64,000 nt of DNA, from positions 72,120 to 136,119 of the forward strand of contig JBAZCA010000001.1 of NCBI GenBank assembly GCA_041671125.1, in the 5' to 3' direction. Each line of letters starts with the position of its first letter. The stretch's first letter is position 1. Below the pieces are notes generated by a model. The model ran no database searches. It was not told the origin of the DNA and worked only from the letters and a program-made list of their open reading frames with translations. This document shows, one piece after another, positions 1,497 to 63,088 of the stretch. Made by a program: the position numbers and the translations under genes. This DNA comes from Patescibacteria group bacterium (GTDB lineage Bacteria; Patescibacteriota; Patescibacteriia; Patescibacteriales; JBAZCA01).

Positions 1497-1646
1497 CTTA
1501 GTAAGCAGGCGACTGAAATCAATGATCAATTATCAATTTACAATGATCAATGAAATTTTTGATTAAATTTCCAAAATAAATTGAAAATTTAATCATTGAA
1601 AATTCATTGTAAATTGATCATTGATTTAACCCATCTGCCTACTAAG
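1497..1646. repeat. Long AT-rich imperfect inverted repeat, copy 1 of the 'tcaatgatcaattatcaatttacaatgatcaatgaa' family
   Basis: Outer arms cttagtaagcagg / cctactaag. Inner arms pair as ...aatgatcaat...caatgaa / ttcattg...attgatcatt. The 36-nt core 1519-1554 is identical to 14174-14209. Confidence 0.85.
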
Positions 1647-1943
1647 ATTATTTTAAAAGAACATAGCTTCAGACAATTAGACTCATCTGAAATTATTTTC
1701 TTTCAAACCGTTACGAATAGCGCGGTAAAAAAGTGTACTTAGGCGGCCGAAAATGAATGAATCATCCCGACCGCCCTTATGTTAAGCCCAGCGAACCGGG
1801 CAGATTAACTGCTAAATCTTAAACGTCCATCCGTAGCTCCAAAACTGCCCTTGTAGATTAGCGGCAGTGCCCGAATGACCCGTTTTTAAAATGTTTAAAG
1901 AACAGTCTCTCTCCAGCCCGAAAGCCGGAAAAAGAAGCTTTCG

Positions 1944-3722
1944 CTACTTATCACCGATTGGGTAGCTAAATGAATCTACCCCTTCAGGATTTATCGGCGA
2001 AATTCCTCCGCCCTGGCTAGCAACTTCGGCCAAGGCATCCTGCTGTGCCTGCGTCTTGAGTTGGCACTGGCCGTCGTCGCAAGCAGGTGCGGCAGACAGA
2101 GGCAGTGTCTTAGCGGCTTTGCCCGCAACAGGAAAAGTTGTGATCAGCCCTTGAGGGATGTCCTCGTCAGACTTGCCTTCCCCTTTAATCAGCCGGTAAA
2201 TCTTAACCGGATTTACCTGGGCGGTCAACCCGATGCCGGTTGCGTTACTTACTTCGCCGCCTTTCTTATAGCTGGCGGCGCTGCCTTTAACTCCGATGCC
2301 AAAGGCCTTGTCAAAAAAATTGACATACAGTTTGCCGATGCCAACTTTCCGTTCTGGGCCAAATTTTCCGTAGACATCAGCAGTCAAAGTAATCTGCTTT
2401 TTGTCTCCGAACGATACCAGGTCAGCCTCGGCGGCTACGAACGGCCCTTCGTAGCTGGCCTGCTCGGCGGCTAGCCGAGTGACTCTGCCGGTCTTGTCAG
2501 TAAAAGTTGATTTTCCTCGGCTATTGAGCACATGCTCGTAGCCGAGGGTGACCTTATATTCCGAAAGATACTTCTCGTCCTTTCGTGAATAATCGGCCAA
2601 ACCGACCTCACCAACTAGACTATCCCGGTTGAAAGACGACTTTGATTCTCCCGCGGAGTCGGACATAGACATCTTGTCCCAACCCCAGAGGTATCCGAGC
2701 CGGGTAAACGGCTCGCGTCCGCTCGGTGTCATCATCCGGGCTTCGGCGCCGAGGGTAAACTCGCCGCCGTGGAAATTAACCGGAGACTTCACGACACCCT
2801 TGGGGTCGTTCCACTGGCCGGTGTAACCCGAGAGGCGAGTGTACGGACCTGCTGAGTACTTATTTCCCCAGCGGTCGGTGCCGACCTCCCAGCGAACCGC
2901 GCCATAGGTCCAAAAACTAGTGTCGTTGGCGCCGTCGGAGTACCAGGTTCTGTCAGCCCCACCGACTACGTCAACTTGGGGCTTCCTGATGACCTCACTG
3001 TACTGCTTTACTATTTCCTCAGGCGCGCTTGGCGGAGGGGGTGGTGGCAGTGGAGGTGGAGGAGGGATTATTTTCAAAAGTTGCAGGTAAATATTGTTGC
3101 AACTTTTTCCCTCTATTACCCTCAGCGAATAATCCTCGTTCAGAGGAACAACTGCTTTGGGGCCCTTGCTCCCTTTCTCTAGCCGGGTTTTAGTCCAGCC
3201 CTGAGCGCTCTTTCCATAGGTCACGACGGCATAAATCTGGCCGTCAATTTCAACCGTCTGGGTCGAGCTTTCAAGGGCGTTGACCATCCGTTCAACAGTT
3301 GCATTGGACAAATTAACCGGCAACCGCGCCTCCTGAAGACTCTTAGGGAGCTGTTCCAAGGCGGCTTTCACCGCTTCGCTCCTAGACAGCGTGGTCGGAT
3401 TTTCACCCGCCACGGTTTGTGTTAACACCAGTGGCCTCGGAAGCTCTAATTGCTGGCCAGTAAACACCCACAACTTCGGGTGAGTTACTTGACTTTTCCA
3501 GCCAGCCAGAGCTCGGATGCGTTTCGGAGATGCCGAATCAGAGTAATTTTGCTGATATATTTTACCCAGCGTATCACCCTTTTTCACGGCGTATTTCTCC
3601 TCCGTCTGTACCTGAGGCTCAACGACAACAACTTGCTCATCTTTCCCGTCCTCGGCGAGGACGGGATGAACAAGCGCGATTGCCAAGGCAATCGCCAAGA
3701 TGATCTTGAGAAACTTACTCAC
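1944..3722 (-). CDS. Secreted LysM-domain protein with proline-rich linker and beta-rich C-terminal domain
   Basis: GTG start preceded by AAGGAGG. Signal peptide ends ...VHPVLA. LysM-like segment YAVKKGDTLGKIY...FTGQQLELP. Linker PPPPPLPPPPPPS. The C-terminal ~330 aa show an alternating strand-like pattern. Confidence 0.65.
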   Translation of the reverse strand: MSKFLKIILAIALAIALVHPVLAEDGKDEQVVVVEPQVQTEEKYAVKKGDTLGKIYQQNYSDSASPKRIRALAGWKSQVTHPKLWVFTGQQLELPRPLVLTQTVAGENPTTLSRSEAVKAALEQLPKSLQEARLPVNLSNATVERMVNALESSTQTVEIDGQIYAVVTYGKSAQGWTKTRLEKGSKGPKAVVPLNEDYSLRVIEGKSCNNIYLQLLKIIPPPPPLPPPPPPSAPEEIVKQYSEVIRKPQVDVVGGADRTWYSDGANDTSFWTYGAVRWEVGTDRWGNKYSAGPYTRLSGYTGQWNDPKGVVKSPVNFHGGEFTLGAEARMMTPSGREPFTRLGYLWGWDKMSMSDSAGESKSSFNRDSLVGEVGLADYSRKDEKYLSEYKVTLGYEHVLNSRGKSTFTDKTGRVTRLAAEQASYEGPFVAAEADLVSFGDKKQITLTADVYGKFGPERKVGIGKLYVNFFDKAFGIGVKGSAASYKKGGEVSNATGIGLTAQVNPVKIYRLIKGEGKSDEDIPQGLITTFPVAGKAAKTLPLSAAPACDDGQCQLKTQAQQDALAEVASQGGGISPINPEGVDSFSYPIGDK

Positions 3723-4623
3723 TTGCTTGCCCTCCTTTCAGATGTTTACCATATTTTTTCTTCCAGACGGCCTGATCATCATCGTACTGCTGAAGCCGTC
3801 TAAGATAAGCCTCATCGGCCTGGGGGTTTGCCGGTGCTTGGCGCTCGGACTTGAGGTCGCGGAGCACCGATTTAAACCGGGTGTCCGGGGCAGTATCATA
3901 CCCCGGCTGACTAAGGTCGGCGGATCCGACCATTTCCATCAGAATCCCCAGAACCCGACCGCCAGCTATGCTGGCAAGACCCATAGGTCCTGCAGATGCA
4001 GCGGCGGCGTCTTCTGTAGATACGCTACCAATCCGCTCGAGTATTCGCTCTCCTAGTCCTGGGAATTTGAGCCTGGAGATGGATTCGATAATTCCGGCCA
4101 ATTCGGCCATGAGCTCTTTGTGACGCTCACTGCCGAACTCAACCCACTCAATCTTTACCTCAGGGTATTGATTGATTGGGCGGATATGCTTCCAGTTGAA
4201 TCTGGGCATGCCGGTGCCAAAAACCAGTTGCGCATCCGGCGCATACTGGTGTTCGGACGACCTGGAGTTGATGTAGGCCTGCCGGTTCCAGTCCCGGCCT
4301 TTAACATCAATGACCCAGAGGAGGGGTTGGCTCCCTCTCATGATATCAAGGCCACCGACACTTTCCTTCCCAGGCTTATCATCTTTCTCGTCGTTCCGAA
4401 AGATAATATTATGGGCTACTCCCCCGTCGACAACTTCACTCCTAAAAAGGAGTTCGTGCTCGGGAATCAAGACGGAGTAGTATCCCTTTGCGTTGCCCAT
4501 GTTTTTGAAATCCTGGGGGAGGCTATAAAGCTCATTTTTTCCCATCCGCCCGGTGGCACAGCCACTGAGCAGGGTTCCAATTGCCAAAAGTACCAGAATC
4601 CGTAAAACAACTTTCACTTTCAT
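3715..4623 (-). CDS. Lipoprotein, function unknown
   Basis: Lipobox LLSGC after a hydrophobic N-terminus. GAGGAGGAAGG directly upstream of the ATG. 8-nt overlap with the downstream LysM gene suggests translational coupling. Confidence 0.65.
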   Translation of the reverse strand: MKVKVVLRILVLLAIGTLLSGCATGRMGKNELYSLPQDFKNMGNAKGYYSVLIPEHELLFRSEVVDGGVAHNIIFRNDEKDDKPGKESVGGLDIMRGSQPLLWVIDVKGRDWNRQAYINSRSSEHQYAPDAQLVFGTGMPRFNWKHIRPINQYPEVKIEWVEFGSERHKELMAELAGIIESISRLKFPGLGERILERIGSVSTEDAAAASAGPMGLASIAGGRVLGILMEMVGSADLSQPGYDTAPDTRFKSVLRDLKSERQAPANPQADEAYLRRLQQYDDDQAVWKKKYGKHLKGGQASE

Positions 4624-4634
4624 AACCTTCCTCC

Positions 4635-5213
4635 TCAGACTTTCTCAGCCGCCTCACAGGCGGCATTGGCTTCAATGCTCACGGCCTTTGGGTCAGCTAC
4701 GACCCTCTGGCCGATCTCCCGGAGTTCTTCTTCGCGAAGCAACGTTGCGGTCGCCTCAACGAGAGAGCCCTCTCTCTTTTGCCAGAATTTCCGAAGCCCG
4801 CGACGGAGCTCTTTTAAAATCTCGCTCCGCGATTTGGGCTTCTGGTCATCCGGCCAAAGCGGACTCATATACCGCCCGGGAGAAACTTCTAAAACTTCTG
4901 CCTCCCAGTTTACCATCCGGACTTCACCGGGCTCAAGACCCGACTGATCCGTATCCGCGATTTCAAATGGAATAGTTACTATTCGCGGAAACTCGGCAAC
5001 CCCAGAGACTCCATTTCCTTCGACTATGGGCAGACCGCCCTCCCGCACCTTCCAACATACATACAACAGAAGGGGCAGAATTACGACCAACCCGTAAACG
5101 GCCGCAAAGTAAAGGCGACCGCCATTCTCCCACCATGAGGTGGGCGTCACAGCCACGCTCAAGCCGATAAAACCGACGAGCGCGGCCACCGTTACCGGAA
5201 GACGCTTTTGCAT
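4635..5213 (-). CDS. Membrane protein (two N-terminal TM segments), function unknown
   Basis: TM-like stretches VTVAALVGFIGLSVAV and YFAAVYGLVVILPLLLYV. First gene of the GC-richer four-gene minus-strand cluster. Confidence 0.55.
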   Translation of the reverse strand: MQKRLPVTVAALVGFIGLSVAVTPTSWWENGGRLYFAAVYGLVVILPLLLYVCWKVREGGLPIVEGNGVSGVAEFPRIVTIPFEIADTDQSGLEPGEVRMVNWEAEVLEVSPGRYMSPLWPDDQKPKSRSEILKELRRGLRKFWQKREGSLVEATATLLREEELREIGQRVVADPKAVSIEANAACEAAEKV

Positions 5214-5599
5214 CTTCTTCCGCCTTTCTCCCGGAACCTACCGGGTGTCAGGTTGCCGGTACCCGAACCACGGGTTTTCACTTCCGAACCTACGGACGCG
5301 AAATTACCGGCATGTTACTCTAATAAACTTCACCTATATCATCACAGCGCCGAAGCGCTGATGATCCTAAAATTGTCAAAGAAGCAATTTCCTCCCTTAC
5401 CTTCAGTCTTTAATAGAGATTGCCACCCGGTAAAACACCTAGCGGCTTACTTTTAAAGCGCGAGGGCAAAGAAAAAATAAATTTAACTCAACTTTATTAA
5501 TTTACCTTGAATTTCGCAGTATACTATAAACACCCAATACTGACAATTTAACACATTACCTTAGCAGATTTCAGCCTAACCGTCAAGGCCCTGAAAATA

Positions 5600-5624
5600 C
5601 AAAAAAGCGCCTAAATTAGGCGCT
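5600..5624 (-). terminator. Rho-independent terminator of the 5678..6712 gene
   Basis: Palindrome agcgcctaaattaggcgct (5606-5624), followed on the minus strand by a U6 run. Confidence 0.8.
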
Positions 5625-5677
5625 AATATTAAATAAGTTCATATTTTTTAAAACTACTTCCTGTCTATTAATACCCC

Positions 5678-6712
5678 TTACATTAAATTCTCCATGCTCC
5701 CCCGGCTTAAAATATCCTCAATCCGCGGGCGAGTTTCAGCGCGAAATCTTTCGTCTTCCAGAAAAACGGCAGAACCGGAACCATATTGGTCGCGACTACC
5801 TTCGCTGTCCTGAGCGTCCGCGTTTTTAGCCGCGCCAGACTGATCCGGATTTTCAAAAGCCATATTTCGGTTCGCCCGGCCAGTCTGGATATTAAATTCA
5901 TCGGACCGGATAAAACCGGAACCTTCTCCCTGAGCTTCCGCGCGAAGGCTTTCGCTTTGTCCAGGATAATTTTGTCCTTCTTTTTTAGCCGTAAGTACAC
6001 TAGCAAGGCTATGCCAATTATTTTCTTCGCGGCCAGGATTATTAAGAGTATTTTCATAATTTTTTCTCCGGTTAGTTTTTCCTTTCGGCCAAAAAGACAA
6101 GTCGTACTTTTCTTCCGGAAAAAGATAAATATAAGTAAAAGCGATTACGAGACCGATTATAAAAGCCAGACTGAGGTTAAGCGGCAGGTTCGGGCGGACA
6201 GGCCAGTCGGAAACTGCGGGTTTATCAATTACTTTTAATACCACATTTTCCCCGCCGCCGTGGTAATTTTGGTTTTTAGTCACTAAAACAAAATTGATCG
6301 CCCGGGCAATTTTTTCCGCCTCAGCGCGATTCGGATGAAAAACGCTTATATTAATCATTCCCGAATCAAGCCCTGGGCGGGCTTCAGCGGTTTCGCCCCA
6401 TTTTTTTAAAATATCCTTATTATTTTTCTCTTCGCTAAAATATTCCTCATTAATATTAAAGCCGGATTGCAAAACTTCGCCGTAGAATGAATCCGATTTT
6501 ACCACTTCGGCCAAAACCGAGCTTAAGTATTCGTTGGATCGGTTGATGGAATAAATATCGGTTCCGGCCGGAAATTTCTGGTAAACAAGGATTTTGCTGT
6601 CAGCGCCGTATTTAAACCCCCTGATAAGGCTTCCACCCAATCCGAAGATCAATAATAATAGCACCAGCGTTATGATTGTCCCTTTTTTTCTTTTAATCAG
6701 GTTGATGTCCAT
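5678..6712 (-). CDS. Wzz/polysaccharide co-polymerase-like chain-length determinant protein with disordered C-terminal tail
   Basis: N-terminal TM (IITLVLLLLIFGLGG). Second TM preceded by the proline motif PVRPNLPLNLSLAFIIGLVIAF, as in PCP/Wzz proteins. Confidence 0.55.
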   Translation of the reverse strand: MDINLIKRKKGTIITLVLLLLIFGLGGSLIRGFKYGADSKILVYQKFPAGTDIYSINRSNEYLSSVLAEVVKSDSFYGEVLQSGFNINEEYFSEEKNNKDILKKWGETAEARPGLDSGMINISVFHPNRAEAEKIARAINFVLVTKNQNYHGGGENVVLKVIDKPAVSDWPVRPNLPLNLSLAFIIGLVIAFTYIYLFPEEKYDLSFWPKGKTNRRKNYENTLNNPGREENNWHSLASVLTAKKEGQNYPGQSESLRAEAQGEGSGFIRSDEFNIQTGRANRNMAFENPDQSGAAKNADAQDSEGSRDQYGSGSAVFLEDERFRAETRPRIEDILSRGSMENLM

Positions 6713-6727
6713 AGTTAATCCAATTAC

Positions 6728-6814
6728 AAATTACAAATTAAAAATTACTAAAAATATCAATAATATTCATATATCAGGCAAAATTAGTAATTCGTAATTT
6801 TTAATTTGTAATTT
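6728..6814. repeat. AT-rich spacer hairpin (21-bp perfect stem)
   Basis: aaattacaaattaaaaattac (6728-6748) is the exact reverse complement of gtaatttttaatttgtaattt (6794-6814). The loop is 45 nt. Confidence 0.9.
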
Positions 6815-6971
6815 ATTGACTCATCACCTTAACAGGTTTAGCGGAAAAAGTAAAGAGGGCACCAAACAAAAAAACCTAATTATGAAAATTAGGCTAACAT
6901 TAAAATTATTTCCAATCTACAATTATTTATTAATTGAAGATTGTAGATTGAAGATTGTAGATTAATGCGGA

Positions 6972-7643
6972 TTACAGCAATCCGATTTCATCAATTAAAA
7001 CGATTTTTTTTCCTTCCAGGATGCTATACAAAAACACGTCAGTCATGTCTTTCCGATATCTGTATTCATCCGGATCCATGACCGTAAAATTCAGCTCTTT
7101 TTGGAGCTCTTTTTCCATGTCTTTTATGAGGAGAGAGAATTTGACTTTATTGATCTTGCCGACAACGAGGATATCAACCGGTCCGGCTTCGTTGCCGGCG
7201 AATATCCCTGAAAGAATAAGAAGCTTAAGATTCCCTATCCGCCTTATTTTTGTCGCGAAATCTTTTTCATAGAGGACCTGGGAGCGGATGATAAGATTTT
7301 TAAGCTCGCTTAAAAGGATAAAATCTCGGTTAGCCCGGTAATATTTCCTTTGCTGTTTTAAGAAACCGGTCGGCCGATACGCGGACTTTTTCTTTAATCC
7401 GTCAACCGCCTGCCCGCCGGCAGCCTCTCCGGCATTTTCCTTTTTAACCGGAATTTCAACAATTTCCATGCAGGAATTCAATAGTCCGAAAGCTTCAAGA
7501 TTATCAAGCTCCCTGGCGATTGAATTGACCGCGAGGCCGGAGCGCCGGCTAAGCTCGCGGACATAATATTTTTCTTCGGAGTTAAGAAGGAAAAGTTTTA
7601 AAAGCGATACCCTTGCCTTTGAACCGAAAAGTTTTTGAAGCAT
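6972..7643 (-). CDS. Winged-helix (ArsR-like) transcriptional regulator family protein
   Basis: N-terminus KARVSLLKLFLLNSEEKYYVRELSRRSGLAVNSIARELDNLEAFGLL has HTH/wHTH character. Confidence 0.55.
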   Translation of the reverse strand: MLQKLFGSKARVSLLKLFLLNSEEKYYVRELSRRSGLAVNSIARELDNLEAFGLLNSCMEIVEIPVKKENAGEAAGGQAVDGLKKKSAYRPTGFLKQQRKYYRANRDFILLSELKNLIIRSQVLYEKDFATKIRRIGNLKLLILSGIFAGNEAGPVDILVVGKINKVKFSLLIKDMEKELQKELNFTVMDPDEYRYRKDMTDVFLYSILEGKKIVLIDEIGLL

Positions 7644-7841
7644 ACATTACCGCAGACCTTTATTATTTATGGATTTATAGTATAATATTATCAGCTGTTA
7701 GTAAAGGACTCGCTTTTTGGTTGTTTTGGCGCCCATCATGTCTTTTAAATTAATGACAATAAAATTTTTAATTTTATAATTTTTAATTTTTAAATTAACT
7801 CATTAAAAATTACAAAATTAAAAATTAAAAATTCTGCATAA

Positions 7842-10220
7842 GTGTCCTACAAATTCGCCCAAGTAATATTAAGCTCAAAAACCGGCTCCAAAGTCTGGAG
7901 CGATATTTATTTATCGGAAACCGACGCGGAAAAAGAAATGCGGCTCGGGAAACTTTTTATTTTGGTTGAAATTAGCGGAAACCGGAATGACAGCCTGAAA
8001 ATAATTAACTTCCTTTTAGCGGAAATCCCGAAAAGTTATTACCAGAACGAGCAGTACTTTTTTAAGGAATCGGGTCTCATAAAAATTGACCTGCTGCTTG
8101 AATCCGCCCTGACCGCCACCAATAAATCCTTTTCCCGCTTTTGCCGGGACGAGCGGATCCGGCTCCCGGAAAAAAAATCAAGCCTCACTGTCGGGGTCAT
8201 CCATAAAGACGCGATTTATTTTTCCTCCAGCGGAACCAACAAGGCCTATCTCGCCGCCAGGATAAAGGAAAATGGCGGTGTAAGAACGAGGCTCATAAAC
8301 ATCTTAAGCGAGAGCCGCGGTCCGGCGGCGGAAACCGAATCGCGAAAATACCTTTTTTCCCATATCATAAGCGGCCCTTTTCCCCGCGGCGCCCATGCCA
8401 TTTTTACCAATGAAACCCTGCCGGAATATTTCAGTGAAAAAAAGCTTTCGGAAATAATCACCACCCTCCCTCCGGCGAGCGCCGCCGAATTGATTAAGAA
8501 CGAACTCTCGGGCATCAGCGCCATAACTTCCATTCTCGGGCTGATCATAAAAAACCTGAAAAACGAAAAATCCGCCCGGGAAAGCCTGTCCATAACTCCG
8601 CAAAGCGATCCGAGTGCCTCCCTTTCCTACCTTGATAAAACCGAAAAGCGGACCGAAACCTTTTTAAGCCCGTCCGGGCTTCTGCCGATAAAAAACTGGG
8701 GAACAAAAATCATTGAGCGGTTAAGGGCTGGCTCACGGAAGTATTTCCCCGGAGAAAATAAATTTATCCTGATCAGAGAAAAAATCATTTCCAAAAAAAG
8801 AACCAGCCGTTTTTCTCCGAAGAAAACGCTTTTTTCTTTAACCAGATTCATCACCAGACTGGCCGAGTTAGGCCTTAAACGCTTTTCCAAGGCCAAATCC
8901 GGCAACTTTACCCCGCCCGCCGGAGCCGCGATAACAGCCGCCTTGCCCGGGGAAGACAGTAGCCCCATGATTCAACCGCACGACGCGATACTAAACCTAA
9001 GACAGAAAAAATTCACTCTCGCTTCACTAGCCGCTTTGCCTTTTTATTGTTTTTCCAGAGCCCGCTCTCTAACCGCCGGCTTAAAAAATTGGTTTACGAG
9101 CCTTGGGCGCGCGGGAAAAATTTCACTCATTGCCGGAGCCGCCTGCCTGATCCTGTTTTCCGTAAATTTATCGGTCTTAGCTAATAAGAAAAAGGGTGAG
9201 GAAATAAAAAAAACTTATAGCCGGCTGGCTGAAGAGGTAACGCAAAAACAGAACCAGATTGAAGCCTCTTTCCTCTACGGCAATGAAAAAGGGGCTAAAG
9301 ACCTGATTATTGAAGTCGCGGGCATTCTTGATCAATTTCCCAAAAACGTTGGCGATATCGCCCGATATGAGGAACTTAAGAAAAAATTTCTGGAACAGGA
9401 AGAAAAACTGAGCCGCGCGATAAAAATCGCGGATCCGAAAACGCTCGCCGATTTCTCCATTGCCGCGGCCGGCGCCGACCCGCTCTATCTCGCCCAAGCG
9501 GGCGAAAAAATATTCGCTTACGACCGCGCCTTGGCGAGCCTTTTTAAGATTGATGAAAAAAACAAAGCTGTTACTTCAATAGCCATCCCGGCCGAATTTA
9601 AAAGCCTCTCGGCGCCAGTTACTGATAAAAATAACGACTGTCTTTTTAAATCAGAAAACAAGATCGCCGCCTTAAACCCGGCGGAGGAAAAATGGGCCAA
9701 CCGGGAGCTTGGTTCTGACCGAGCCGCCGGGCTGGACATCTTTTCCACCTATAACAACCGGCTTTATTTCCTTGACAAGGCCGGAGGCCAGGTTGTCCGC
9801 TTTAATAAATCCGGCGAAAGCTACGGCCCTGGCCAGAATTGGCTCACTGAAAAAGCCGATTTTAAAGATGCCCTTGACCTGGACATTGACGGCAATGTCT
9901 ATATTCTTAAGAAAAACGGAGAAGTCCAAAAATTCTTTTCCGGAAAAAAAGCCGAACTAAAAATGGAAGGGCTTATCCGCCCCATTACTGAAGCAGTAGC
10001 TCTTAAAGTGAGCCTCGAAGAAACCGGGTTTATCTATATTTTAGAACCGAAAGAAAAACGTTTGGCTGTCTTTAGAAAAGACGGCAGTTTTGTCCTCCAA
10101 TATCAGTCGGAAAAATGGAGCAACTTGAAGGATTTTATCGTTAACGAAAGCGCGAAAAAAATCTACGTCCTGAACGGCGCAGTGGTTTACGAAATAGAAG
10201 CGGAGCATTTGAAAAAATAG
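7842..10220 (+). CDS. Large hypothetical membrane protein (C-terminal beta-propeller-like repeats)
   Basis: 792-aa ORF with a GTG start. Central TM (ISLIAGAACLILFSVNLSVL). Repeated motifs NRLYFLDKAGGQVVRF, GNVYILKKNGEVQKF and KIYVLNGAVVYEI. Confidence 0.5.
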   Translation: MSYKFAQVILSSKTGSKVWSDIYLSETDAEKEMRLGKLFILVEISGNRNDSLKIINFLLAEIPKSYYQNEQYFFKESGLIKIDLLLESALTATNKSFSRFCRDERIRLPEKKSSLTVGVIHKDAIYFSSSGTNKAYLAARIKENGGVRTRLINILSESRGPAAETESRKYLFSHIISGPFPRGAHAIFTNETLPEYFSEKKLSEIITTLPPASAAELIKNELSGISAITSILGLIIKNLKNEKSARESLSITPQSDPSASLSYLDKTEKRTETFLSPSGLLPIKNWGTKIIERLRAGSRKYFPGENKFILIREKIISKKRTSRFSPKKTLFSLTRFITRLAELGLKRFSKAKSGNFTPPAGAAITAALPGEDSSPMIQPHDAILNLRQKKFTLASLAALPFYCFSRARSLTAGLKNWFTSLGRAGKISLIAGAACLILFSVNLSVLANKKKGEEIKKTYSRLAEEVTQKQNQIEASFLYGNEKGAKDLIIEVAGILDQFPKNVGDIARYEELKKKFLEQEEKLSRAIKIADPKTLADFSIAAAGADPLYLAQAGEKIFAYDRALASLFKIDEKNKAVTSIAIPAEFKSLSAPVTDKNNDCLFKSENKIAALNPAEEKWANRELGSDRAAGLDIFSTYNNRLYFLDKAGGQVVRFNKSGESYGPGQNWLTEKADFKDALDLDIDGNVYILKKNGEVQKFFSGKKAELKMEGLIRPITEAVALKVSLEETGFIYILEPKEKRLAVFRKDGSFVLQYQSEKWSNLKDFIVNESAKKIYVLNGAVVYEIEAEHLKK

Positions 10221-10250
10221 CTCCCGCACAATTTTCCATATACAGACATA

Positions 10251-10284
10251 AAAAAATACTCCTTTTGAATAAGGAGTATTTTTT
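10251..10284. terminator. Bidirectional intrinsic terminator between convergent genes
   Basis: aaaaaatactcctt-ttgaat-aaggagtatttttt. The stem is flanked by an A-run and a T-run. Confidence 0.8.
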
Positions 10285-10300
10285 ATCCCGCGCTGTAATA

Positions 10301-10723
10301 TTATTTCAAAGTGACTTTCGCGCCGGCTTCTTCCAGTCTCTTTTTCATGGCTTCGGCGTCCTCTTTTTTTATCCCTTCTTTAAGCATTTTCGGAGCGCCG
10401 TCAACTAAATCCTTGGCGTCCTTTAAGCCCATTTCGGTGAGTTCCCGAACCGCCTTAATCACTGCGATTTTGTTGGCGCCGGCTTCGGTGATCTCAACGT
10501 TAAAGCTGGTCTTTTCTTCAGCGGCTTCTACCGGAGCTCCCGGCATAGCGCCCATCATCATGGCCGGAGCCGCGGCGGATACGCCAAATTTCTTTTCCAA
10601 GATTTTAACCAGTTCGGCTAAATCTAGAACCGACATTTTTTCAATGGTCTCCACCAATGATTTAAATTTTTCCGGGATAACAACCTCTTCGGCTGCTTCG
10701 TCTTTTTTTACTTCGTCTGACAT
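10301..10723 (-). CDS. rplL: 50S ribosomal protein L7/L12
   Basis: C-terminus [56 protein letters not shown], with an Ala/Pro-rich hinge. Confidence 0.97.
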
Positions 10724-10813
10724 ATGTTTGAATTAAGAATTAAGAATTATGAATTAAGAATATTTTTTATTATTATTCATGATTCATTATTCATAATTCA
10801 TTTTATTAATAAA

Positions 10814-11344
10814 TCAGCTTGTTTTTTTCTCTTCAACTGCCTTAAGGACATAAACCAAATTCCTTAAATTCCCGGCCAAAGCGTTAACGAAGCCTGAAAC
10901 AGGAGCGTTAATGGAACCAACGATTTTCGCGTAAAGTTCGGTTTTGGACGGAAGGGTGGCTAGCATTTTTACCTCTTCGGCGGCCAGCGTTTTCCCTTCA
11001 AGGATACCGGCTAAAAATTCCAGCTTGCCTTCTTTTTCCTTTATGAACTTACTCGCTTCTTTGACCGGCGCCACTTCATCGCCGTAGCCAAAGATGATTC
11101 CGACCTGGCCTTCAAGGTTTTTCGCGTCAACCCCTTTAATCCCTGCGTCGGCGAGCGCCAGGTTGATTAAAGTCTTTTTGGCGACCAAAAATTCGCCGGA
11201 CTCTTTCCTTAAATCAGAACGCAATTTTTCGCTCTCTTCCACGGTCATGCGGCTGTAGCGGGCAAAAAATAATGATTTTGATTTTTTAACTTTTTCTTTT
11301 AATGTCCTTAAAATCTCGCTCTTTTGTAATCTGGTTTTAGGCAT
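10814..11344 (-). CDS. rplJ: 50S ribosomal protein L10
   Basis: 176 aa directly upstream of rplL. Typical L10 N-terminus (KSEILRTLKEKVKKSKSLFFARYSRMTVEESEKLR). Confidence 0.93.
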   Translation of the reverse strand: MPKTRLQKSEILRTLKEKVKKSKSLFFARYSRMTVEESEKLRSDLRKESGEFLVAKKTLINLALADAGIKGVDAKNLEGQVGIIFGYGDEVAPVKEASKFIKEKEGKLEFLAGILEGKTLAAEEVKMLATLPSKTELYAKIVGSINAPVSGFVNALAGNLRNLVYVLKAVEEKKTS

Positions 11345-54263: not shown

Positions 54264-54291
54264 GTAGAGACGCATTGCAATGCGTCTCTAC
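54264..54291. repeat. REP hairpin d (45 nt downstream of the RAYT stop)
   Basis: gtagagacgca-ttgcaa-tgcgtctctac. Confidence 0.9.
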
Positions 54292-54336: not shown

Positions 54337-54957
54337 TCACATCCAAATATTCTCCACGTTATTCCTGTCACGTTCCCACATCGCCGGATTGTTAATAATA
54401 TATTCCCGGATTCGGTTTAAAGATTCGTCGTTCCTGATAATGTGATCGTAAAAACGGGATTGCCAGGCGAAATTAGGATATTCGGATTTCCAAATTTTTT
54501 TCGTGCAGACCGATTTAATTTGATTTATAATTGAACCCAATGAATTTGGTTTCCATTGCGGATTATATCCGCCACGTTTCAATTTATCATCAACCGCAAC
54601 CATCGCGGTGGTAGAGACGCCCCGGCGGGGCGTCTCTACCGTCGCGCGGGGCGTCTCTACGGATGATTTGATCTTGCACAAAATTTCCAAAATTGCGTGC
54701 AAATGATTCGGCATAATTATCCATTCATCCAAAATTACATTCTGACGAATTATCGGCGTTTGCGACAATTCCTCCTGAACGATTTTCCCGATATCATTTA
54801 AACTCATTTTTCCGTTTTTAACCTCTCCAAAATAATGTTCTCTGTCTTTCGTGCAAATCGTTATGAAATATACGCCGTTTTGACTATAATCATAGCCTTC
54901 CAATCTGGCGGATTTGATGCGAAATTTATTTTTAAATCTTTGTGATATTGGCAACAT
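54337..54957 (-). CDS. REP-associated tyrosine transposase (RAYT; IS200/IS605 Y1 HUH family)
   Basis: YDYSQNGVYFITICTKDREHYFG. HUH motif IMPNHLHAIL. Tyr helix WQSRFYDHIIRNDESLNRIREYI. Interrupted in-frame by REP sequence. Confidence 0.8.
   Translation of the reverse strand: MLPISQRFKNKFRIKSARLEGYDYSQNGVYFITICTKDREHYFGEVKNGKMSLNDIGKIVQEELSQTPIIRQNVILDEWIIMPNHLHAILEILCKIKSSVETPRATVETPRRGVSTTAMVAVDDKLKRGGYNPQWKPNSLGSIINQIKSVCTKKIWKSEYPNFAWQSRFYDHIIRNDESLNRIREYIINNPAMWERDRNNVENIWM
54611..54660. repeat. REP hairpin e plus an extra half-site, in-frame inside the RAYT gene
   Basis: gtagagacgccccggcggggcgtctctac followed by cgtcgcgc-ggggcgtctctac. Translated as SVETPRATVETPRRGVSTTA. Confidence 0.9.
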
Positions 54958-55270: not shown

Positions 55271-55365
55271 ATGGTACGAGTCCAGCAGTCCATTAGCCGA
55301 ATAGTCAGACTGTCAGACTACGGACTAATTGACTAACTGACTAACTGACTATTAGACTATTTTGG

Positions 55366-55683: not shown

Positions 55684-55763
55684 AAATCAGACAATAGACA
55701 TCAGTAAATAGTAAATAGAAACTTTATAACTCTATTGACTATTGTCTATTTACTGTTTACTAA

Positions 55764-58238: not shown

Positions 58239-58326
58239 ATAAATTTCATATAACACATAACATGGAACACGTAACAAATAGTTTTAACCAAGATTATTAT
58301 GTGTTGTGTGTTCTATGTTATGCAAG

Positions 58327-59373
58327 TCAGAATTGCTCAAGAAATCTCAAATCTCCGCTATTAAATAATCTTATATCTTCAATGCCGTATTTTAGCTGGA
58401 CAATCCGGTTTAAGCCGAATCCGAAAGCGAAACCGGTGTATTTTTCCGGATCAATTTTACCGGCTTTGAGCACGTTCGGATGGACCATCCCGGCGCCGAA
58501 AATTTCCAGCCAGCCGGTCTGTTTGCAAAGCCGGCAACCTTGGCCATGGCATAAAAAACAGGTTACTTCCCCGTTAAATCCCGGCTCAACGAACGGATAA
58601 AATTTTGGCCGCAGGCGCACTTCGGTTTCCGGGCCGTAAAGATGTTTGGCCATGGCTTCTAAAATCCCTTTTAAATGCCGGATGTTTATATTCTTATCAA
58701 CCATCAAACCTTCCAGCTGATAAAAAGTATGTTCGTGCCGGACGTCGGTCGCTTCGGAACGGAAACATCTTCCGGGGACGACGCATCTTAAGGGAGGGCC
58801 GTATTTCAGCATTGACCGGACCTGCATGGGCGAAGTATGGGTGCGCATGACTAAATCCGGCGCTCCGCCTTCTTCGCCTTTGACGTTAAGGCCTTTCGGG
58901 TCAATATAAAAAGTATCCTGCATGTCGCGGGCCGGATGCCACTTCGGGATATTTAAAGCCTCAAAGCAGAAATAATCGCTTTCCAGCTCCGGGCCTTCCA
59001 AAACCATGAAATTAAGGCCGCGAAAAAAATCCTCCAGGTCTTCGCGGACTATGGTTATCGGATGAAGATGGCCGCGCGCGATTTTTCCGCCCGGCAGAGT
59101 CGGGTCGGAAAAGCCCGGTTTTTTCGCGGCGCTTTCAAAAATTTCCTTGGCTTCTTCAAACTTTTTTCTTATTTCCGATTTCAACTCATTAGCCAGCTTT
59201 CCGGCTTCTTTTTTTTCTTCATCAGTAAGCTTAGCAACGTCTTTTAATATTCCGGCCAATTCCCCTTTGCGCCCGAGAATTTTTATTTCCAGTTCGCGCA
59301 AAACCCCGCCGTCTTTCACTTCGGACAGTTTACTTAATATTTCTTCCTTAAATTTTTCAATTTTATTTTTCAT
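58327..59373 (-). CDS. pheS: Phenylalanine--tRNA ligase alpha subunit
   Basis: HPITIVREDLEDFF, class II motifs (RTHTSPMQVR, FRSEATDVRHEHTFYQLEG, GAGMVHPNVL). Confidence 0.95.
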   Translation of the reverse strand: MKNKIEKFKEEILSKLSEVKDGGVLRELEIKILGRKGELAGILKDVAKLTDEEKKEAGKLANELKSEIRKKFEEAKEIFESAAKKPGFSDPTLPGGKIARGHLHPITIVREDLEDFFRGLNFMVLEGPELESDYFCFEALNIPKWHPARDMQDTFYIDPKGLNVKGEEGGAPDLVMRTHTSPMQVRSMLKYGPPLRCVVPGRCFRSEATDVRHEHTFYQLEGLMVDKNINIRHLKGILEAMAKHLYGPETEVRLRPKFYPFVEPGFNGEVTCFLCHGQGCRLCKQTGWLEIFGAGMVHPNVLKAGKIDPEKYTGFAFGFGLNRIVQLKYGIEDIRLFNSGDLRFLEQF

Positions 59374-59750
59374 ATTGCTTTTTTATAACTCACCAAAAAG
59401 AATTCAAGGATGCTTAAACCTAAAACCAGAAATCCGAGGTTCGCCCAGTTAAATAAATCTTTGGATAAAAGGATTAGCGCGACAATAACCAGAGCGGCGA
59501 ATAAAAACGACTGGCGAAAAGCTTCTATGACTGAGCGGCCGGCTAGTTGCCGTTTTAGGGTAATAAACCGGATTACAAAACCGAAGATGGCCGCCGCGCC
59601 GGTTATGGCCATGAAAAGCGAAGCGTAAAAAAGGATAAAACCGACCCAGTTCGTAATCTCCGGGTTGACAGTCCAGGCGACGTAAGAAAAAACCGCGAAG
59701 CAGGCAACGGCCGCCAGAGTCATGATGAATAAATACATTTTCAGTCCCAT
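59370..59750 (-). CDS. Integral membrane protein (4 TM), function unknown
   Basis: 126 aa. 4-nt overlap with the pheS start. Confidence 0.5.
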   Translation of the reverse strand: MGLKMYLFIMTLAAVACFAVFSYVAWTVNPEITNWVGFILFYASLFMAITGAAAIFGFVIRFITLKRQLAGRSVIEAFRQSFLFAALVIVALILLSKDLFNWANLGFLVLGLSILEFFLVSYKKAI

Positions 59751-59881
59751 GGAAAAAAATTACAAATTACGAATTACGAATTACGAATTACGAATTTTTC
59801 CAACCTTAATTATTAATCCGTAATTTTTAATTCTACAAACATGTTATCACTTATCGGCTCATTTTTCAACACCCCGCGGCC

Positions 59882-59911
59882 GGTAGAGACGAAAAATTTT
59901 GCGTCTCTACC
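59882..59911. repeat. REP hairpin g
   Basis: ggtagagacg-aaaaatttt-gcgtctctacc. The helicase stop codon TAG (59909-59907, minus strand) lies in its arm. Confidence 0.9.
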
Positions 59912-62900
59912 GGCTCACTTTCCTGAACTCGCAAATTCCGTTAAAGTCGCACCAGCCGCAGGCCATGCCCGGTTTAGGAGCAAAGTTACAGGAGCGAATG
60001 CCGGAAATCAGGCTAAAAGTTATTTCTTTAAACTTTTCAAGATCTTTTTCTTTGGCCTCAAAAGAAACCGCGGTCCCGTTATCAAGGTAATAATAAGCCA
60101 GCTCGGAAACTTTATGGCCAAAAAGGCTTTCCACCGCGATCTTATATAAAATCAGCTGTTTCTTCTCGTCAAAAGTAAGTTTTTCTTTCGGCGAACCGGT
60201 CTTATAATCAAGAATGCGGACTGTCCCGTCCGGAAGGCGGTCCACCCGGTCAATCGCGCCGCGGAACATATACTCTCCGAGCCGGACGGCAAAACTTTTT
60301 TCAAGGTATATCGGTTCGGGCCAACCGTTTTCTTCCAGGCTCTTATAAAACATTTTAAGCGATTCCCGGCCTTTCTTTTTATAACCTTCCCTCTGTTCTT
60401 TACTATCATAGCCATCATCCTCCCAGCGGGTTTCAAAAATTTCCATGAGCCTTTCTTTATCCGGCTTTTTAATTTCTTTTTCCGCTGAACCGAAGAGCCC
60501 CGGCTGGGCAATATCGCCCTTCATGAGCGTAAAAAGGAAATCCCTTAAGATGCCGTGCATCACCCGGCCGTAAGTAAAGACCGGTTTGCCGGGCGTCGGG
60601 ATCTTTAGAATATAGTTAAATTTATATTGCAAAGGGCAGGTTGCGTAGGTCTCAGTCTGGGAAAAAGAAAATTTCTGGGGCAGATAATATTTATCGTTGC
60701 AATCCGGCGCTTTGGAAAAAGAGGCCGCTCCGGCCAGATCCCTTAAAAAATCATTTGTTTCGCCTTTTAGAACCAAGGTCGCCGGCAAAACAGACATATC
60801 TTCCATTCCGGCTTCGGCTAAAAAGCGGGAAATTTTTTTCTTTCTTACCCCGCCGTAATCCTCGGCGCTCGTAAAGAAAAGCTTTTCTTTGGCCCGGGTC
60901 ATGGCAACGTAAAAAAGCCGGCGCTCTTCTTCTAAATGCGCGTCGCTCGTCTCCGGCAATTTCTCCCGCACTAACGCGTCGGGAATAGCGATTTTTTCCG
61001 AACGCCCGACGGTCGGAAATTTCTTATCAACGACATTAACAATGAAAACGTATTTGAATTCTTTTCCTTTGGCCGCGTGGACGGTCATTACTTTTATTGT
61101 GTCCGCGTCGTCGGCTTGCGTGTTTAAGGAGCCGGTCTCGCCTGATTCCATTTCCAGGGCTAGAAGCTCCATGAACGCCCTTAACCGCAAATCCGGATCA
61201 TTATCCTCGTAAAACTTTATCCTTTTATAAAACTGACCGATATGGTTAAAAATTTCCTTGTCGCGGTCAAAATCATAATCCTTAATAAGACCCGATTCGT
61301 TAATGAAATTTAAAAAAATCCGCGAAGGCTTTTCCCGGCGCGATAATTCCGAATGACGCCGAACCATGGCAACGAGCTTTCCGGCGGCCGCGGCCGATTC
61401 CGGGCTGACTTTCGGCACGGCGGTGATATTTAAAATCCCCTCGTACATGGACCAGCCCTTGGCGCGGACAAAATAATTAACGGCGATAATATCGGCGTGG
61501 CTTAAGCGGAAAGCCGGAATATTTAAAACCCGGTAGAGAGCCGATGACTCATGGTAATTGTCCAGCAGTTTAAAATAAGCAATAATATCTAAAATCGCCG
61601 GTTTATAATAAAGCCCTCTTTGCGAAACAAAATCTACCGGAATATCGCGCCGCTTTAATTCGGCGATGAATTTTCCGGCCGTATCGTTAGCGCGGGTTAA
61701 AATCGCGAAGTCCAGCCAGGCCGCGTCTTTATCAGCGTCCTTCAGGCTAACGATTTTTTCCACGACGTTTCGCGTTTCTTCTTCTTCGTTGGCAAAGCGC
61801 AAATGCGCGACTTCGCCTTTTTCTTTTTTTCCGGCTTTTAAATCTTTATTAATTTTCAATTTTACTTCCAGCCGGTTCGGGTCGTTATGCTTAATAAATT
61901 CATACGCCTTATTAAGGATTGCCTGTCCGGAGCGGTAATTCACGCCCAAAACCACTTCGCTGGCTCCCGGAAAATCGTCTTTAAACTGCATGATGTTGGA
62001 TAATGACGCCCCGCGGAATTTATAGATTGACTGGTCATCATCCCCAACAACAACCAGATTTTTTTTCTCTCCGGCCAAAAGTTTTATCATTTCATACTGC
62101 GCCCAGTTGGTATCCTGAAATTCGTCCACCATGATGTATTTGAATTTTTTCCGGTAAAAATCCAGTATGTTAGGACGTTCTTTAAAAAGCTTAAGTGTGT
62201 AATAAATGAGATCGCCGAAATCAAGATAACCATTATCCAGTAATAATTTATTATAAACATGATAGGCGTTGGCGAGCTCCATGATCCTTAAAACCTCCAT
62301 TCCGTCAATTTTATTTTTATCTTCGGTTTTGATTTTGGATTCGGGTTTTGACGTGGATTTATGATTTTTCGTTTGGAAATTGGAAATTTTATTTGTCTTG
62401 CTTCCGGATAGCATAGCGTCGCCATCCTGCTCTAATTCACCCGCGTACGCTAAGTATTCCGCCGGGGTTATATCTTCGTCCTTTAACCGCGAAAAATGCT
62501 TTAAAAGTTCGTGGATGAACTTAGTCGGATTGCCGAGCGGCCGGTAATAATCCAGGTTAAATTCTTTCAGGTTCTTTTTAACCATCACCCAGGCTTCGGT
62601 TTCAGTAATCACTTTAAAATCACCGGGCAGGCCGATGTCTAAAGCGTGTTCGCGCAAAATCCGTCCGCAAAAATCATGAAAGGTTGAAATCCAGCGGTCA
62701 ACATAACCGTAAGGAAGAAGCTTATCCGCCCGCTCGTCCATTTCTTCGGCCGCTTTGCGGGTAAAAGTGATTAAGAGAATTTCCTCCTGCTTTGCCAGAC
62801 CCTTTTCAATTAGAAAAGCCAGCCGGCTTATTAGCGCCGTCGTCTTTCCGGTTCCGGCGCCGGCCACGATTAAAAGCGGCCCGTCCGTATGCGTCGCCGC

Positions 62901-62942
62901 CTTTTTCTGCTCGGGGTTAAGGCTGTCTATATAGTTATTCAT
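59907..62942 (-). CDS. UvrD/PcrA-family helicase fused to a C-terminal PD-(D/E)XK nuclease with a 4-Cys cluster (AddB/Cas4-like)
   Basis: Walker A AGAGTGKT. DEFQDTN. C-terminal CPLQYKF...IDRVDRL...ILDYKTG...CNFAPKPGMACGWCDFNGIC. Confidence 0.88.
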   Translation of the reverse strand: MNNYIDSLNPEQKKAATHTDGPLLIVAGAGTGKTTALISRLAFLIEKGLAKQEEILLITFTRKAAEEMDERADKLLPYGYVDRWISTFHDFCGRILREHALDIGLPGDFKVITETEAWVMVKKNLKEFNLDYYRPLGNPTKFIHELLKHFSRLKDEDITPAEYLAYAGELEQDGDAMLSGSKTNKISNFQTKNHKSTSKPESKIKTEDKNKIDGMEVLRIMELANAYHVYNKLLLDNGYLDFGDLIYYTLKLFKERPNILDFYRKKFKYIMVDEFQDTNWAQYEMIKLLAGEKKNLVVVGDDDQSIYKFRGASLSNIMQFKDDFPGASEVVLGVNYRSGQAILNKAYEFIKHNDPNRLEVKLKINKDLKAGKKEKGEVAHLRFANEEEETRNVVEKIVSLKDADKDAAWLDFAILTRANDTAGKFIAELKRRDIPVDFVSQRGLYYKPAILDIIAYFKLLDNYHESSALYRVLNIPAFRLSHADIIAVNYFVRAKGWSMYEGILNITAVPKVSPESAAAAGKLVAMVRRHSELSRREKPSRIFLNFINESGLIKDYDFDRDKEIFNHIGQFYKRIKFYEDNDPDLRLRAFMELLALEMESGETGSLNTQADDADTIKVMTVHAAKGKEFKYVFIVNVVDKKFPTVGRSEKIAIPDALVREKLPETSDAHLEEERRLFYVAMTRAKEKLFFTSAEDYGGVRKKKISRFLAEAGMEDMSVLPATLVLKGETNDFLRDLAGAASFSKAPDCNDKYYLPQKFSFSQTETYATCPLQYKFNYILKIPTPGKPVFTYGRVMHGILRDFLFTLMKGDIAQPGLFGSAEKEIKKPDKERLMEIFETRWEDDGYDSKEQREGYKKKGRESLKMFYKSLEENGWPEPIYLEKSFAVRLGEYMFRGAIDRVDRLPDGTVRILDYKTGSPKEKLTFDEKKQLILYKIAVESLFGHKVSELAYYYLDNGTAVSFEAKEKDLEKFKEITFSLISGIRSCNFAPKPGMACGWCDFNGICEFRKVSR

Positions 62943-63088
62943 GAAAAAACAAATACGAAACTTAAAGAAAATTTAAATTTTCAATTTACAAACAATTTCT
63001 AATTTAGAAATGACTCAATTTTCTAAAATTTTAAAATTGTAAATTGATAATTAAAAATTAATTTTCTTCGCTCCGGCAAAATCTAAGA

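Follow-up and report, generated by a model that had tools for sequence, protein, structure and literature searches.

Palindromes with arms of tandem seven-nucleotide words in the spacers of a Patescibacteria genome

The 64,000 nucleotides analysed here, called the window throughout, are a stretch of contig JBAZCA010000001.1 from a bacterium of the Candidate Phyla Radiation (CPR, or Patescibacteria), and 21 of its 45 intergenic spacers of at least 40 nt contain a long AT-rich hairpin whose arms are strings of tandem 7-nt words. With about as much doubt as conviction, we interpret these heptad hairpins as lineage-specific, fast-turnover extragenic palindromes that resemble repetitive extragenic palindromic (REP) sequences and transposable elements of the miniature inverted-repeat kind (MITEs), and whose arms are heptamer microsatellites of the type of simple sequence repeats (SSRs) and short tandemly repeated repetitive (STRR) sequences.

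The window has a base composition of ~45% G+C and carries 3 tRNAs and ~51 protein genes, predominantly on the minus strand. The top homologues of its rplJ product are found in Patescibacteria: locus L001, from a metagenome-assembled genome (MAG), shows 94% identity, Falkowbacteria show 49-60%, and Moraniibacteria and others fall below. Homologues of MreB and Fpg give the same placement. Judged by these protein comparisons, the host belongs to the CPR and is close to Falkowbacteria. They rule out a heterocystous cyanobacterium, which STRR-like heptamers, GTAGAGACG and "PLTPSP"-type repeats might have suggested. Comparison loci are designated by L numbers below.

Hairpins with seven-nucleotide periodicity

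Reading and folding all spacers of the window revealed long imperfect palindromes. Inverted repeats are present at every site listed in the original prediction, including a perfect 21-bp stem at 6728-6814, and 41340-41420 is the sole listed hairpin that lacks 7-nt periodicity. Tandem Repeats Finder (TRF) reports 38 period-7 arrays with 2.1-5.9 copies, nearly all of them in spacers and nearly all as inverted pairs, together with 14/15/21-nt multiples and two 8-nt cases. Intergenic DNA has a self-identity of 0.328 at lag 7 and 0.27-0.29 at the lags on either side, with echoes at lags 14 and 21; the value for genes is 0.25. Arrays of the window have the features of heptanucleotide SSRs, namely a tandem 7-nt unit in at least three copies outside genes, and no hairpin lies inside a coding sequence (CDS) of the window. 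The arms have GC contents of 0.00-0.32, comprise at least 12 distinct AT-rich words and form stems of 20-35 bp.

The pattern might be due to chance, the spacers being AT-rich, or to faulty assembly, and the low GC of the spacers (0.12-0.34) does inflate self-complementarity. We give this explanation next to no credence. An ungapped inverted-repeat search of 46 spacers, with arms of at most 36% G+C, found 15, 12 and 7 AT-rich hairpins at scores of at least 12, 14 and 17, where 100 dinucleotide-preserving shuffles averaged 0.41, 0.04 and 0; the palindromes are thus far commoner than in composition-matched sequence, a comparison that the original prediction had called for on the scale of the genome. 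Fold z-scores range from -1.9 to -8.3 even when each element is shuffled alone, which keeps the local composition, and the signal is specific to lag 7. An independent assembly, L056, is 100% identical to the window over 20.4 kb, hairpins included, which rules out an assembly artefact.

The two arms of a hairpin are related in a particular way. Their complementarity is 0.83-1.00 in register 0 and still 0.40-0.88 when the register is moved by ±7 nt; shifts of ±3/4 nt bring it to 0.18-0.47. No such effect is seen in ordinary hairpins of the window such as the terminator at 10251 and the GC element at 46750. The stems are therefore mirror copies of irregular heptad strings, which are able to pair out of register too.

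Such hairpins do not occur in nearly every spacer, as had been claimed, and their presence correlates with gene orientation. When curated protein genes and tRNAs are used, hairpins occupy 19 of 30 co-oriented spacers (about 63%), 2 of the 7 divergent spacers and none of the 8 convergent ones (Fisher p=0.004 for convergent versus remaining spacers). Convergent spacers hold canonical GC-stem/T-run terminators or GTAGAGACG palindromes instead. The bias rests on 45 curated spacers from one genome, which tempers the strength it lends to our interpretation; an automated replicate in relatives yielded too few elements, from crude open reading frame (ORF) calls that ignore tRNAs.

The hairpins also adjoin the starts of genes without a Shine-Dalgarno (SD) motif, in line with the original prediction: SD-like motifs precede none of the 16 genes with a hairpin within 30 nt of the start and 10 of 34 others (p=0.02). 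This association is partly tautological, because the hairpin arm physically occupies the SD position, and most genes of the window lack an SD regardless of any hairpin. Clear GGAGG SD sites characterize a five-ORF block at 737-5213, with 50-54% G+C and no Pfam match in any of the five ORFs. The corresponding place in L001 lacks the block, which is probably an acquired island with translation signals unlike those of the SD-poor host genes.

Absence from orthologous spacers, dispersal and growth in place

Two syntenic blocks were compared across 5-6 relatives with CDS identities to the window of 80-88%. The first, ftsX-DUF4012-mreB-GT-rplJ-rplL-(792 aa)-223 aa-GNVR (GT, glycosyltransferase), was compared in L001, L057, L060/61 and L062/63/64, and the second, hisS ... 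relA-TPR-tRNA-Thr ... tRNA-Tyr-fpg-RR-HlyD-ABC-ftsX (RR, response regulator), in L067, L068/69 and L070/71. Apart from part of an arm between rplJ and rplL, not one sequence-conserved hairpin exists in the relatives' orthologous spacers over the two blocks. Occupied spacers measure 75-205 nt in the window where relatives have 2-31 nt, and window spacers are 4-100 times longer than their counterparts, or about 2 times at relA/TPR. The DUF4012 to mreB spacer, for example, is 205 nt long in the window, with a palindrome of the dispersed family A described below, and 2-31 nt in all relatives; the HlyD to ABC spacer has 108 nt in the window, where L067/L068/L070 have 12-26 nt, and the mreB to GT spacer 180 nt, where L062 has 6 nt.

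Features that are kept in the same alignments include canonical terminators, a ribosomal protein L10 leader, an extended -10 element (gTGcTATAATc) and, ahead of the GNVR gene, a block that resembles a promoter. As the hairpins are missing or built from unrelated words while these neighbouring signals are kept, they are not under locus-specific constraint, and a conserved structural role at each locus, as envisaged in the original prediction, finds no support in either block. Arms that are 83-100% complementary despite large synonymous divergence further indicate that the palindromes are young. Two other spacers stand out in these alignments. The 213-nt divergent spacer at 33925-34137, between a Lipoprotein_15-repeat gene and a DUF2207 gene, is almost identical in L068 versus ~88% for coding sequence and has no Rfam match; by this comparison it is a strongly constrained non-coding region. 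In the convergent spacer between rplL and the 792-aa gene, L060 (13717-13933) and L062 (13574-13799) carry a roughly 130-nt AT-rich palindrome without a 7-nt period, beside a canonical terminator and with a GC hairpin at its centre, which represents another palindromic class of the clade.

A clean pair of filled and empty sites is provided by the relA/TPR divergent spacer, which is 212 nt long in the window and 99 nt in L068, with alignable flanks. This one clean junction examined is flanked by AATT, which in this composition is indistinguishable from the repeat itself. The arms flanking tRNA-Tyr, an AATCGTA array at 27495-27538 on its 3' side, accompanied by a later 115-nt insertion, and a GATTTAC array at 27741-27768 on its 5' side (both minus strand, as are all heptad elements below unless stated), are missing in L068, and in L067 there are direct upstream units only. 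Directly 3' of tRNA-Tyr, positions 27539-27656 hold a second copy of the tRNA 3' end (ggttcg...gagtccaccccggcccaca), which a GC-rich palindromic insert of 55 nt interrupts. Neither L067 nor L068 has this duplicate, and their fpg ATG lies ~14 nt past the tRNA. The segment looks like a tRNA 3'-end integration scar, or a small element in the T-loop of a duplicated fragment.

Several hairpins belong to dispersed families. Family A has three copies in 64 kb, at 1518-1625, 14168-14330 and 39330-39480, which have 33-38 identical nt of the irregular string ATCAATGATCAATTATCAATTTACAATGATCAATGAA in common and are alignable over 110-160 nt, and further copies at non-syntenic loci of two other metagenome contigs, L065 and L066. 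The first copy, to which no strand is assigned, has ATCAATG/TCAATTA words and arms at 1525-1546 and 1604-1625 (z -8.3), set within a further outer inverted repeat, cttagtaagcag...ctgcctactaag; the second adjoins the mreB ATG; the third occupies a divergent spacer, adjoins the ATG of gene 38478-39329 and is palindromic through its centre (ttttcaaaCGtttgaaaa). These three, with a hairpin at 12987-13160, are the four sites that extend the list of the original prediction. Elsewhere, AATTACA/AATTACG/AATTAAA strings are common to the loci at 6713/38401/59751 and 7750/23817/42874, 22 nt are common to those at 6905 and 18009, and AATCGTA-type strings to those at 27480/27741/21749. Words also recur between non-orthologous loci of different genomes: the hairpin between ftsX and DUF4012 in L057 matches 27 of 28 nt of window 55684-55763, and L065 5807-5846 matches 36 of 40 nt of an arm of the hairpin that separates rplJ from rplL in the window, with null maxima well under the observed scores in both comparisons. 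The claim that each locus has its own word thus holds for many words but fails for at least four families with shared irregular strings. The verdict that this is no transposing repeat is likewise contradicted in part, by family A, the relA/TPR filled and empty site and the non-orthologous recurrence. As regards the dispersed copies of a MITE, family A has them, being palindromic to its centre, and the other loci share 14-36-nt strings or are unique.

Growth in place is visible as well, which bears out the local generative mechanism offered as an option in the original prediction. Near-perfect arrays (AATTACG x5.6 at 96% and TCTCATA x5.9 at 91%, by TRF) occur in one arm only, which indicates that slippage acts after palindrome formation; such one-arm sites lie at 59758-59796, 11353-11393 and 10730-10761. 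In the hairpin at 59755-59836 the AATTACG arm adjoins the ATG of gene 59370-59750 and the opposite arm is degenerate, an asymmetry that points to recent one-arm slippage. The intercistronic hairpin between rplJ and rplL (10730-10802) pairs GAATTAA with ATTCATA words, one arm having been remodelled and homogenised to GAATTAA in the window. The stems of these two hairpins, and of the one at 16690-16752, are decaying.

Three of the hairpin loops each enclose a small palindrome that is GC-rich. One of these is the 20-nt perfect palindrome CCTGCCTGCCGGCAGGCAGG, a very small dispersed repeat, at 14281-14300 within a family-A copy and again at 21549-21568 and 21623-21642, one of the three copies having a single change. 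Another is a roughly 70-nt dispersed palindromic element (gtcatcctgagcg...) in the loop of 12987-13160, the AAAATCA arms of which (12987-13011 and about 13125-13160) fill the mreB-to-glycosyltransferase spacer. The third, gtccgcc...ggcggac, forms a GC hairpin in the loop of 42876-42975. A GC-richer hairpin element of roughly 70-80 nt, gtcatcctgagcgtagcgaaggatcc...ctcaggatgac, was seen at about 13035-13110 and 46755-46840 in the window and at 10424-10534 in L065, one copy being nested in a heptad-hairpin loop.

A process in four steps could produce this picture. Units of 7 nt expand and homogenise by replication slippage in AT-rich untranslated DNA, as the perfect one-arm arrays show. An inverted copy may then be made through strand or template switching, in events of the quasi-palindrome type, or a whole palindrome may be copied to another AT-rich spacer via short homology or some transposition step; the dispersed families and the filled and empty site argue for such dispersal, and the enzymology is conjectural. 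Copies would survive only in transcribed untranslated DNA, that is, operon junctions, 5' untranslated regions (UTRs), 3' UTRs before terminators and tRNA flanks. There, a self-folding insert would return the stop and start codons to about 7-35 single-stranded nt of each other, and its A/U-rich 3' arm may stand in for a leader in a largely SD-independent host. The copies would decay afterwards. As RNA, these elements would be 20-35-bp A·U stems slipping by 7 nt, and any effect as a target of RNase III or a barrier to 3'-exonucleases would be secondary and generic, not locus-specific.

Placement in transcripts and possible functions

One landmark for placement is upstream of rplJ, where 11462-11597 (minus strand) is a full-length match to the Rfam L10 leader (RF00557; 39.9 bits versus a gathering score of 44, E=3e-5) that includes the AGACAGCAGG...CCUGCCGAGG core and terminator. 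The leader (11462-11620) has its own TTGACA-16-TATATT promoter, and its stems covary in L001, L060 and L062; its presence here extends the range of RF00557 to Patescibacteria. The ATATCTC/GAGATAT hairpin at 11353-11455 lies between the leader terminator (11496-11477) and the rplJ ATG (11344), which would place it within the 5' UTR of the essential rplJ operon. Relatives have no such hairpin, and their ATG follows 1-95 nt past the terminator.

Further elements can be placed by similar landmarks. The AATTACA/AATTAAA hairpin at 6722-6814, which contains the perfect 21-bp stem and ends 15 nt from the ATG of gene 5678-6712, lies 3' of a promoter-like block (ttaaggtgatgagtcaa, kept in L062) before the GNVR gene and is thus predicted to be in a 5' UTR; a 5'-UTR location, one of the options in the original prediction, is accordingly probable for several hairpins. 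The ATTGAAG/ATTGTAG hairpin at 6916-6966 begins 5 nt past the stop of gene 6972-7643, shares its 22 nt with 18009-18083 and precedes the canonical terminator of that gene (about 6897-6865), as expected of a 3' UTR. At 16690-16752, an ATTTGAA hairpin starts 2 nt past the ftsX-like stop, upstream of the conserved extended -10 of the DUF4012 gene. About ten hairpins fill operon junctions. Taken together, the positions after the L10 leader, after a promoter and before a terminator suggest that the elements are in transcribed untranslated DNA wherever they can be placed. In this they would be REP-like, occupying putatively transcribed extragenic sites and missing at the orthologous sites of relatives.

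The remaining elements are as follows. An AATCTTC/AATCTAC hairpin (18015-18083) fills the spacer from an xerC-like stop to an ftsX-like start and is missing in L001; a degenerate AATTTTT/ATTAAAA palindrome (23820-23928) fills the HlyD-to-ABC spacer; and AATTAAA/AATTTTT arms of 24 nt (42876-42975) fill that between lepB and hisS. The AATTACG/AATTAAA hairpin at 38403-38477 lies between the stop of the TPR gene and the 5' end of tRNA-Thr. At 48820-48900 (plus strand), a weaker example with AAGTCAA and TTGGACT words separates dprA from topA. A GACTAACT array with an 8-nt unit (55300-55360) has partial inverted copies (gtcagact), and a TAAATAG/CTATTGA hairpin (55690-55763) fills a co-oriented spacer. 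The CACATAA/TGTGTT hairpin (58243-58322) sits at the pheS-pheT junction, its 3' arm overlapping the annotated pheT start, and a degenerate TAAAAAT/CAATTTA palindrome (62965-63062) lies in the spacer from the 63089 stop to the 62942 start.

Intrinsic termination, another role raised in the original prediction, can be rejected: the stems are A·T, mostly without a T-run, and one lies inside the rplJ 5' UTR. Canonical terminators serve the convergent spacers, and one lies downstream of the 6916-6966 hairpin. A terminator scan selected canonical sites (11496-11477, 5624-5606) and a nested GC palindrome, not the heptad stems. Rfam at the gathering threshold reports only tRNAs in the window, and with E-value thresholds one of the hairpins gives spurious plant microRNA (miRNA)-precursor matches only. 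In practice, heptad hairpins will confound terminator, small RNA and miRNA-like predictions in CPR genomes.

Selection on the RNA is not evident in the stems themselves. Comparison of sense and antisense fold stability in 21 elements gave 13 sense-favoured and 8 antisense-favoured (Wilcoxon p=0.52), with no excess of G·U pairs on the sense strand. Stem co-variation, for which the original prediction had looked to orthologous spacers, was not seen: hairpins there are missing or of unrelated words. Neither compensatory change nor G·U bias, the marks of a selected structured RNA, was found. The strand symmetry of fold stability points to an origin at the DNA level.

A possible but doubtful alternative is that the hairpins are selected RNA "operon punctuation", in which A·U stems act as RNase III processing sites and/or 3'-exonuclease barriers and the sequence is free as long as the stem is kept. 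Comparable cases are the intercistronic sites of the T7 early region and of rplJL-rpoBC, the stems flanking rRNAs and tRNAs, and REP stabilisers. The enrichment in one-strand stop-to-start junctions (19/30 versus 2/15 divergent plus convergent spacers), the predicted position within a transcript at every landmarked site, the arms that flank tRNA-Tyr and precede tRNA-Thr (and, in L022, tRNA-Trp), and a stem length of 20-35 bp that matches RNase III substrates all fit this explanation. Several observations not only favour it but also weigh against our own interpretation. Four spacers (ftsX to DUF4012, mreB to GT, hisS to S21 and TPR to tRNA-Thr) hold hairpins in the window and in the nearest relative alike, with words that differ, as in L057 at the first and L068 at the last. 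The rplJ-rplL spacer is the sole one with an AT-rich heptad hairpin in every relative, and one of its arms is 97% identical between the window and L001 over 35 nt, a partial exception to the lack of conservation. Hairpins heavily occupy spacers that span 2-31 nt in relatives, but none lies in 1.8 kb of convergent spacers; this contrast goes beyond simple neutral insertion, and positive selection or a mechanism linked to transcription could be behind it. Also unfavourable to our interpretation are the many words that have no second occurrence in roughly 300 kb of sequence examined; the failure to find, for the heptad hairpins, a transposase, an unambiguous target-site duplication or a terminal motif that is conserved; and the lack of copy-number or indel variation among assemblies of the same populations, so that slippage is not fast on that timescale. 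The punctuation hypothesis, for its part, must contend with orthologous junctions that are mostly hairpin-free, with genes 2-31 nt apart, and with occupancy of both genomes in 4 of 9 spacers, which is the chance expectation (about 3.6 from the two occupancy rates). It is also at odds with the missing G·U-type bias, the decay of several stems, the absence of the tRNA-Tyr arms from L067 and L068, and the absence of RNase III among the genes of the 64-kb window.

Signals acting at the DNA level, such as promoters or UP-elements, curved DNA, cruciform insulators or sites for a heptad-reading DNA- or RNA-binding protein, seem to us quite unlikely. A binding protein of this kind has been proposed for the TAACTGA repeats of Beggiatoaceae and for Nostoc heptamers, and start-proximal heptamers have precedents (PMC4679880; bioRxiv 10.1101/2022.06.06.494920). 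Arms adjoin the start codons of 16 SD-less genes, strand-symmetric palindromes suit DNA recognition, and some loops contain promoter-like hexamers. The strongest promoter match of its region (ATGACA-16-TATAAT, 7753-7780) overlaps the 5' arm of the AATTTTT/ATTAAAA hairpin at 7760-7833 (plus strand), which has 25-nt arms with 1 mismatch, ends 15 nt before the start of gene 7842-10220 and is missing in L001/L060. The diversity of words, however, is too great for a single binding protein, relatives do without the hairpins, the conserved promoters (ftsX-to-DUF4012, GNVR gene, L10 leader) lie outside them, and promoter-rich divergent spacers are poorly occupied (2/7). Promoter-like matches number only 46 versus 32.8±6.5 in shuffles. 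The idea of leaderless mRNAs with embedded promoters was rejected because of this weak enrichment and because positions, judged by eye and by consensus scan, are inconsistent.

Tandem SSRs directly 5' of start codons could also be phase-variable contingency loci, in which the 7-nt copy number switches expression of the adjacent gene. This is very improbable: the neighbours are housekeeping genes (rplJ, rplL, mreB, hisS, pheST, topA), an inverted arrangement is unnecessary for it, and independent assemblies from the same population show no length differences, which means that the arrays are not hypervariable.

A bolder version, which we consider unlikely, would be an undescribed class of element or process that, in CPR and independently in at least one Nitrospirota genome, writes register-sliding palindromes of 7-nt words into transcribed stop-to-start junctions. 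It would act through transcription- or replication-linked generation (slippage plus snap-back or template switching) or as a new non-autonomous mobile family, the long A·U hairpins being used as RNase III-type punctuation and SD-independent leaders. Should the orientation bias hold genome-wide, it would point to an origin linked to transcription or, in organisms whose regulatory repertoires are minimal, to a generic role in RNA processing. Our own interpretation, of fast-turnover palindromes with microsatellite arms, joins two separate literatures, on start-adjacent heptamer SSRs in SD-poor bacteria and on REP/MITE-type extragenic palindromes. With graded relatives, filled and empty sites and one-arm expansions, these loci offer a tractable system for the birth and decay of palindromes.

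Occurrence and comparison with known repeats

In the window, L001, L057, L065 and L066, the arms of AT-rich hairpins show strong heptad periodicity, which was not found in more distant Falkowbacteria loci or in 48 control loci of other phyla (655 kb). Tandem-word hairpins occur also in L010, a Moraniibacteria locus, and tandem-word palindromes (GATTTTG, CAATTAA) are abundant in L022, a Nitrospirota MAG (4774-19309), at junctions of its nusG-rplKAJL-rpoBC operon. These two occurrences indicate that the architecture arises repeatedly and independently. L022 also has three copies of a 46-nt palindrome, gattataggacttatagg...cctataagtcctataatc, one of them between rpoB and rpoC, followed by normal SD sites. 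In a survey of 118,019 genomes, which offers no explanation for it, the density of perfect inverted repeats is greatest in CPR phyla (PMC13155455); palindromic heptamer microsatellites in about 63% of co-oriented spacers would be one concrete source. A search of the literature turned up no account of heptad palindromes from CPR bacteria.

Among known systems, intrinsic (Rho-independent) terminators are similar in being stem-loops in a spacer downstream of a gene. In such terminators a T-run follows a short-looped, G+C-rich stem of 5-12 bp, unlike in heptad stems, which are A·T over 20-35 bp, with loops of 10-70 nt and usually no T-run, and which occur in 5' UTRs and operon interiors too.

Bacterial MITEs (Correia, RUP, BOX, ERIC) and the small dispersed repeats of Nostoc are, like the heptad hairpins, non-coding elements of 60-175 nt with long hairpins, dispersed families and filled/empty site polymorphism, and the nested small GC palindromes are as in Nostoc. 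Unlike for MITEs, neither a parent insertion sequence nor a target-site duplication nor defined terminal inverted repeats were found for the heptad hairpins; their copies are mostly unique in word, and their microsatellite arms also evolve in place.

With REPs, their composites the bacterial interspersed mosaic elements (BIMEs) and REP doublets forming hairpins (REPINs), the shared features are a palindromic structure, extragenic position at transcribed untranslated sites, many copies, nesting and lack of conservation between related genomes. REPs and REPINs are GC-rich palindromes with a GTAG or CGTC head and a shared consensus, whereas the heptad arms are AT-rich, without such a head or single consensus, and have an internal 7-nt periodicity. 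A REP system of this classical kind is present in the CPR genome, as far as motifs and matches indicate. A minus-strand ORF at 54337-54957 resembles the Y1 transposases known as REP-associated tyrosine transposases (RAYTs), with an HUH motif (PNHLHAI), the string SRFYDHIIRN and weak matches to PF01797 and PDB 4er8 (TnpA-REP); no other transposase ORF was found in the window. GTAG-headed REP palindromes (GTAGAGACGC...GCGTCTCTAC) lie at 51144-51173, 51254-51282, 51762-51798, 54264-54291, 54611-54660 and 59879-59914, with one doublet in frame within the RAYT-like ORF and one within a 974-aa beta-helix gene. Nothing supports a connection of the RAYT-like gene with the heptad hairpins; the GTAGAGACG GTAG-head REPs form a separate family.

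The closest resemblance in the unit itself is to heptamer SSRs: the cyanobacterial STRR of Calothrix and Nostoc, TAACTGA of marine Beggiatoaceae (PMC4679880), and GGGAATC/GGGGAYT of Xanthomonas and Nostoc (PMC4692102). Direct start-proximal heptamers occur in cyanobacteria, Beggiatoaceae, Bacteroidetes and Xanthomonas, with unknown function (PMC4679880, PMC4692102, bioRxiv 10.1101/2022.06.06.494920), and Mrazek 2007, as cited in PMC4679880 and PMC4692102, has heptamers as the commonest long-SSR class in bacteria and ascribes them to polymerase slippage. Like the arrays of the window, these repeats have a 7-nt unit in 3-6 tandem copies, are intergenic, vary between close relatives, are attributed to slippage and often end a few nt from the start codon of an SD-less gene. 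They are, however, direct arrays of one or few genome-wide words (STRR1-3, TAACTGA), as in BOGUAY, with 169 direct sets and 1 inverted. In the CPR host described here, by contrast, nearly every array has an inverted partner with which it forms a 20-35-bp stem, and the AT-rich words number at least 12.

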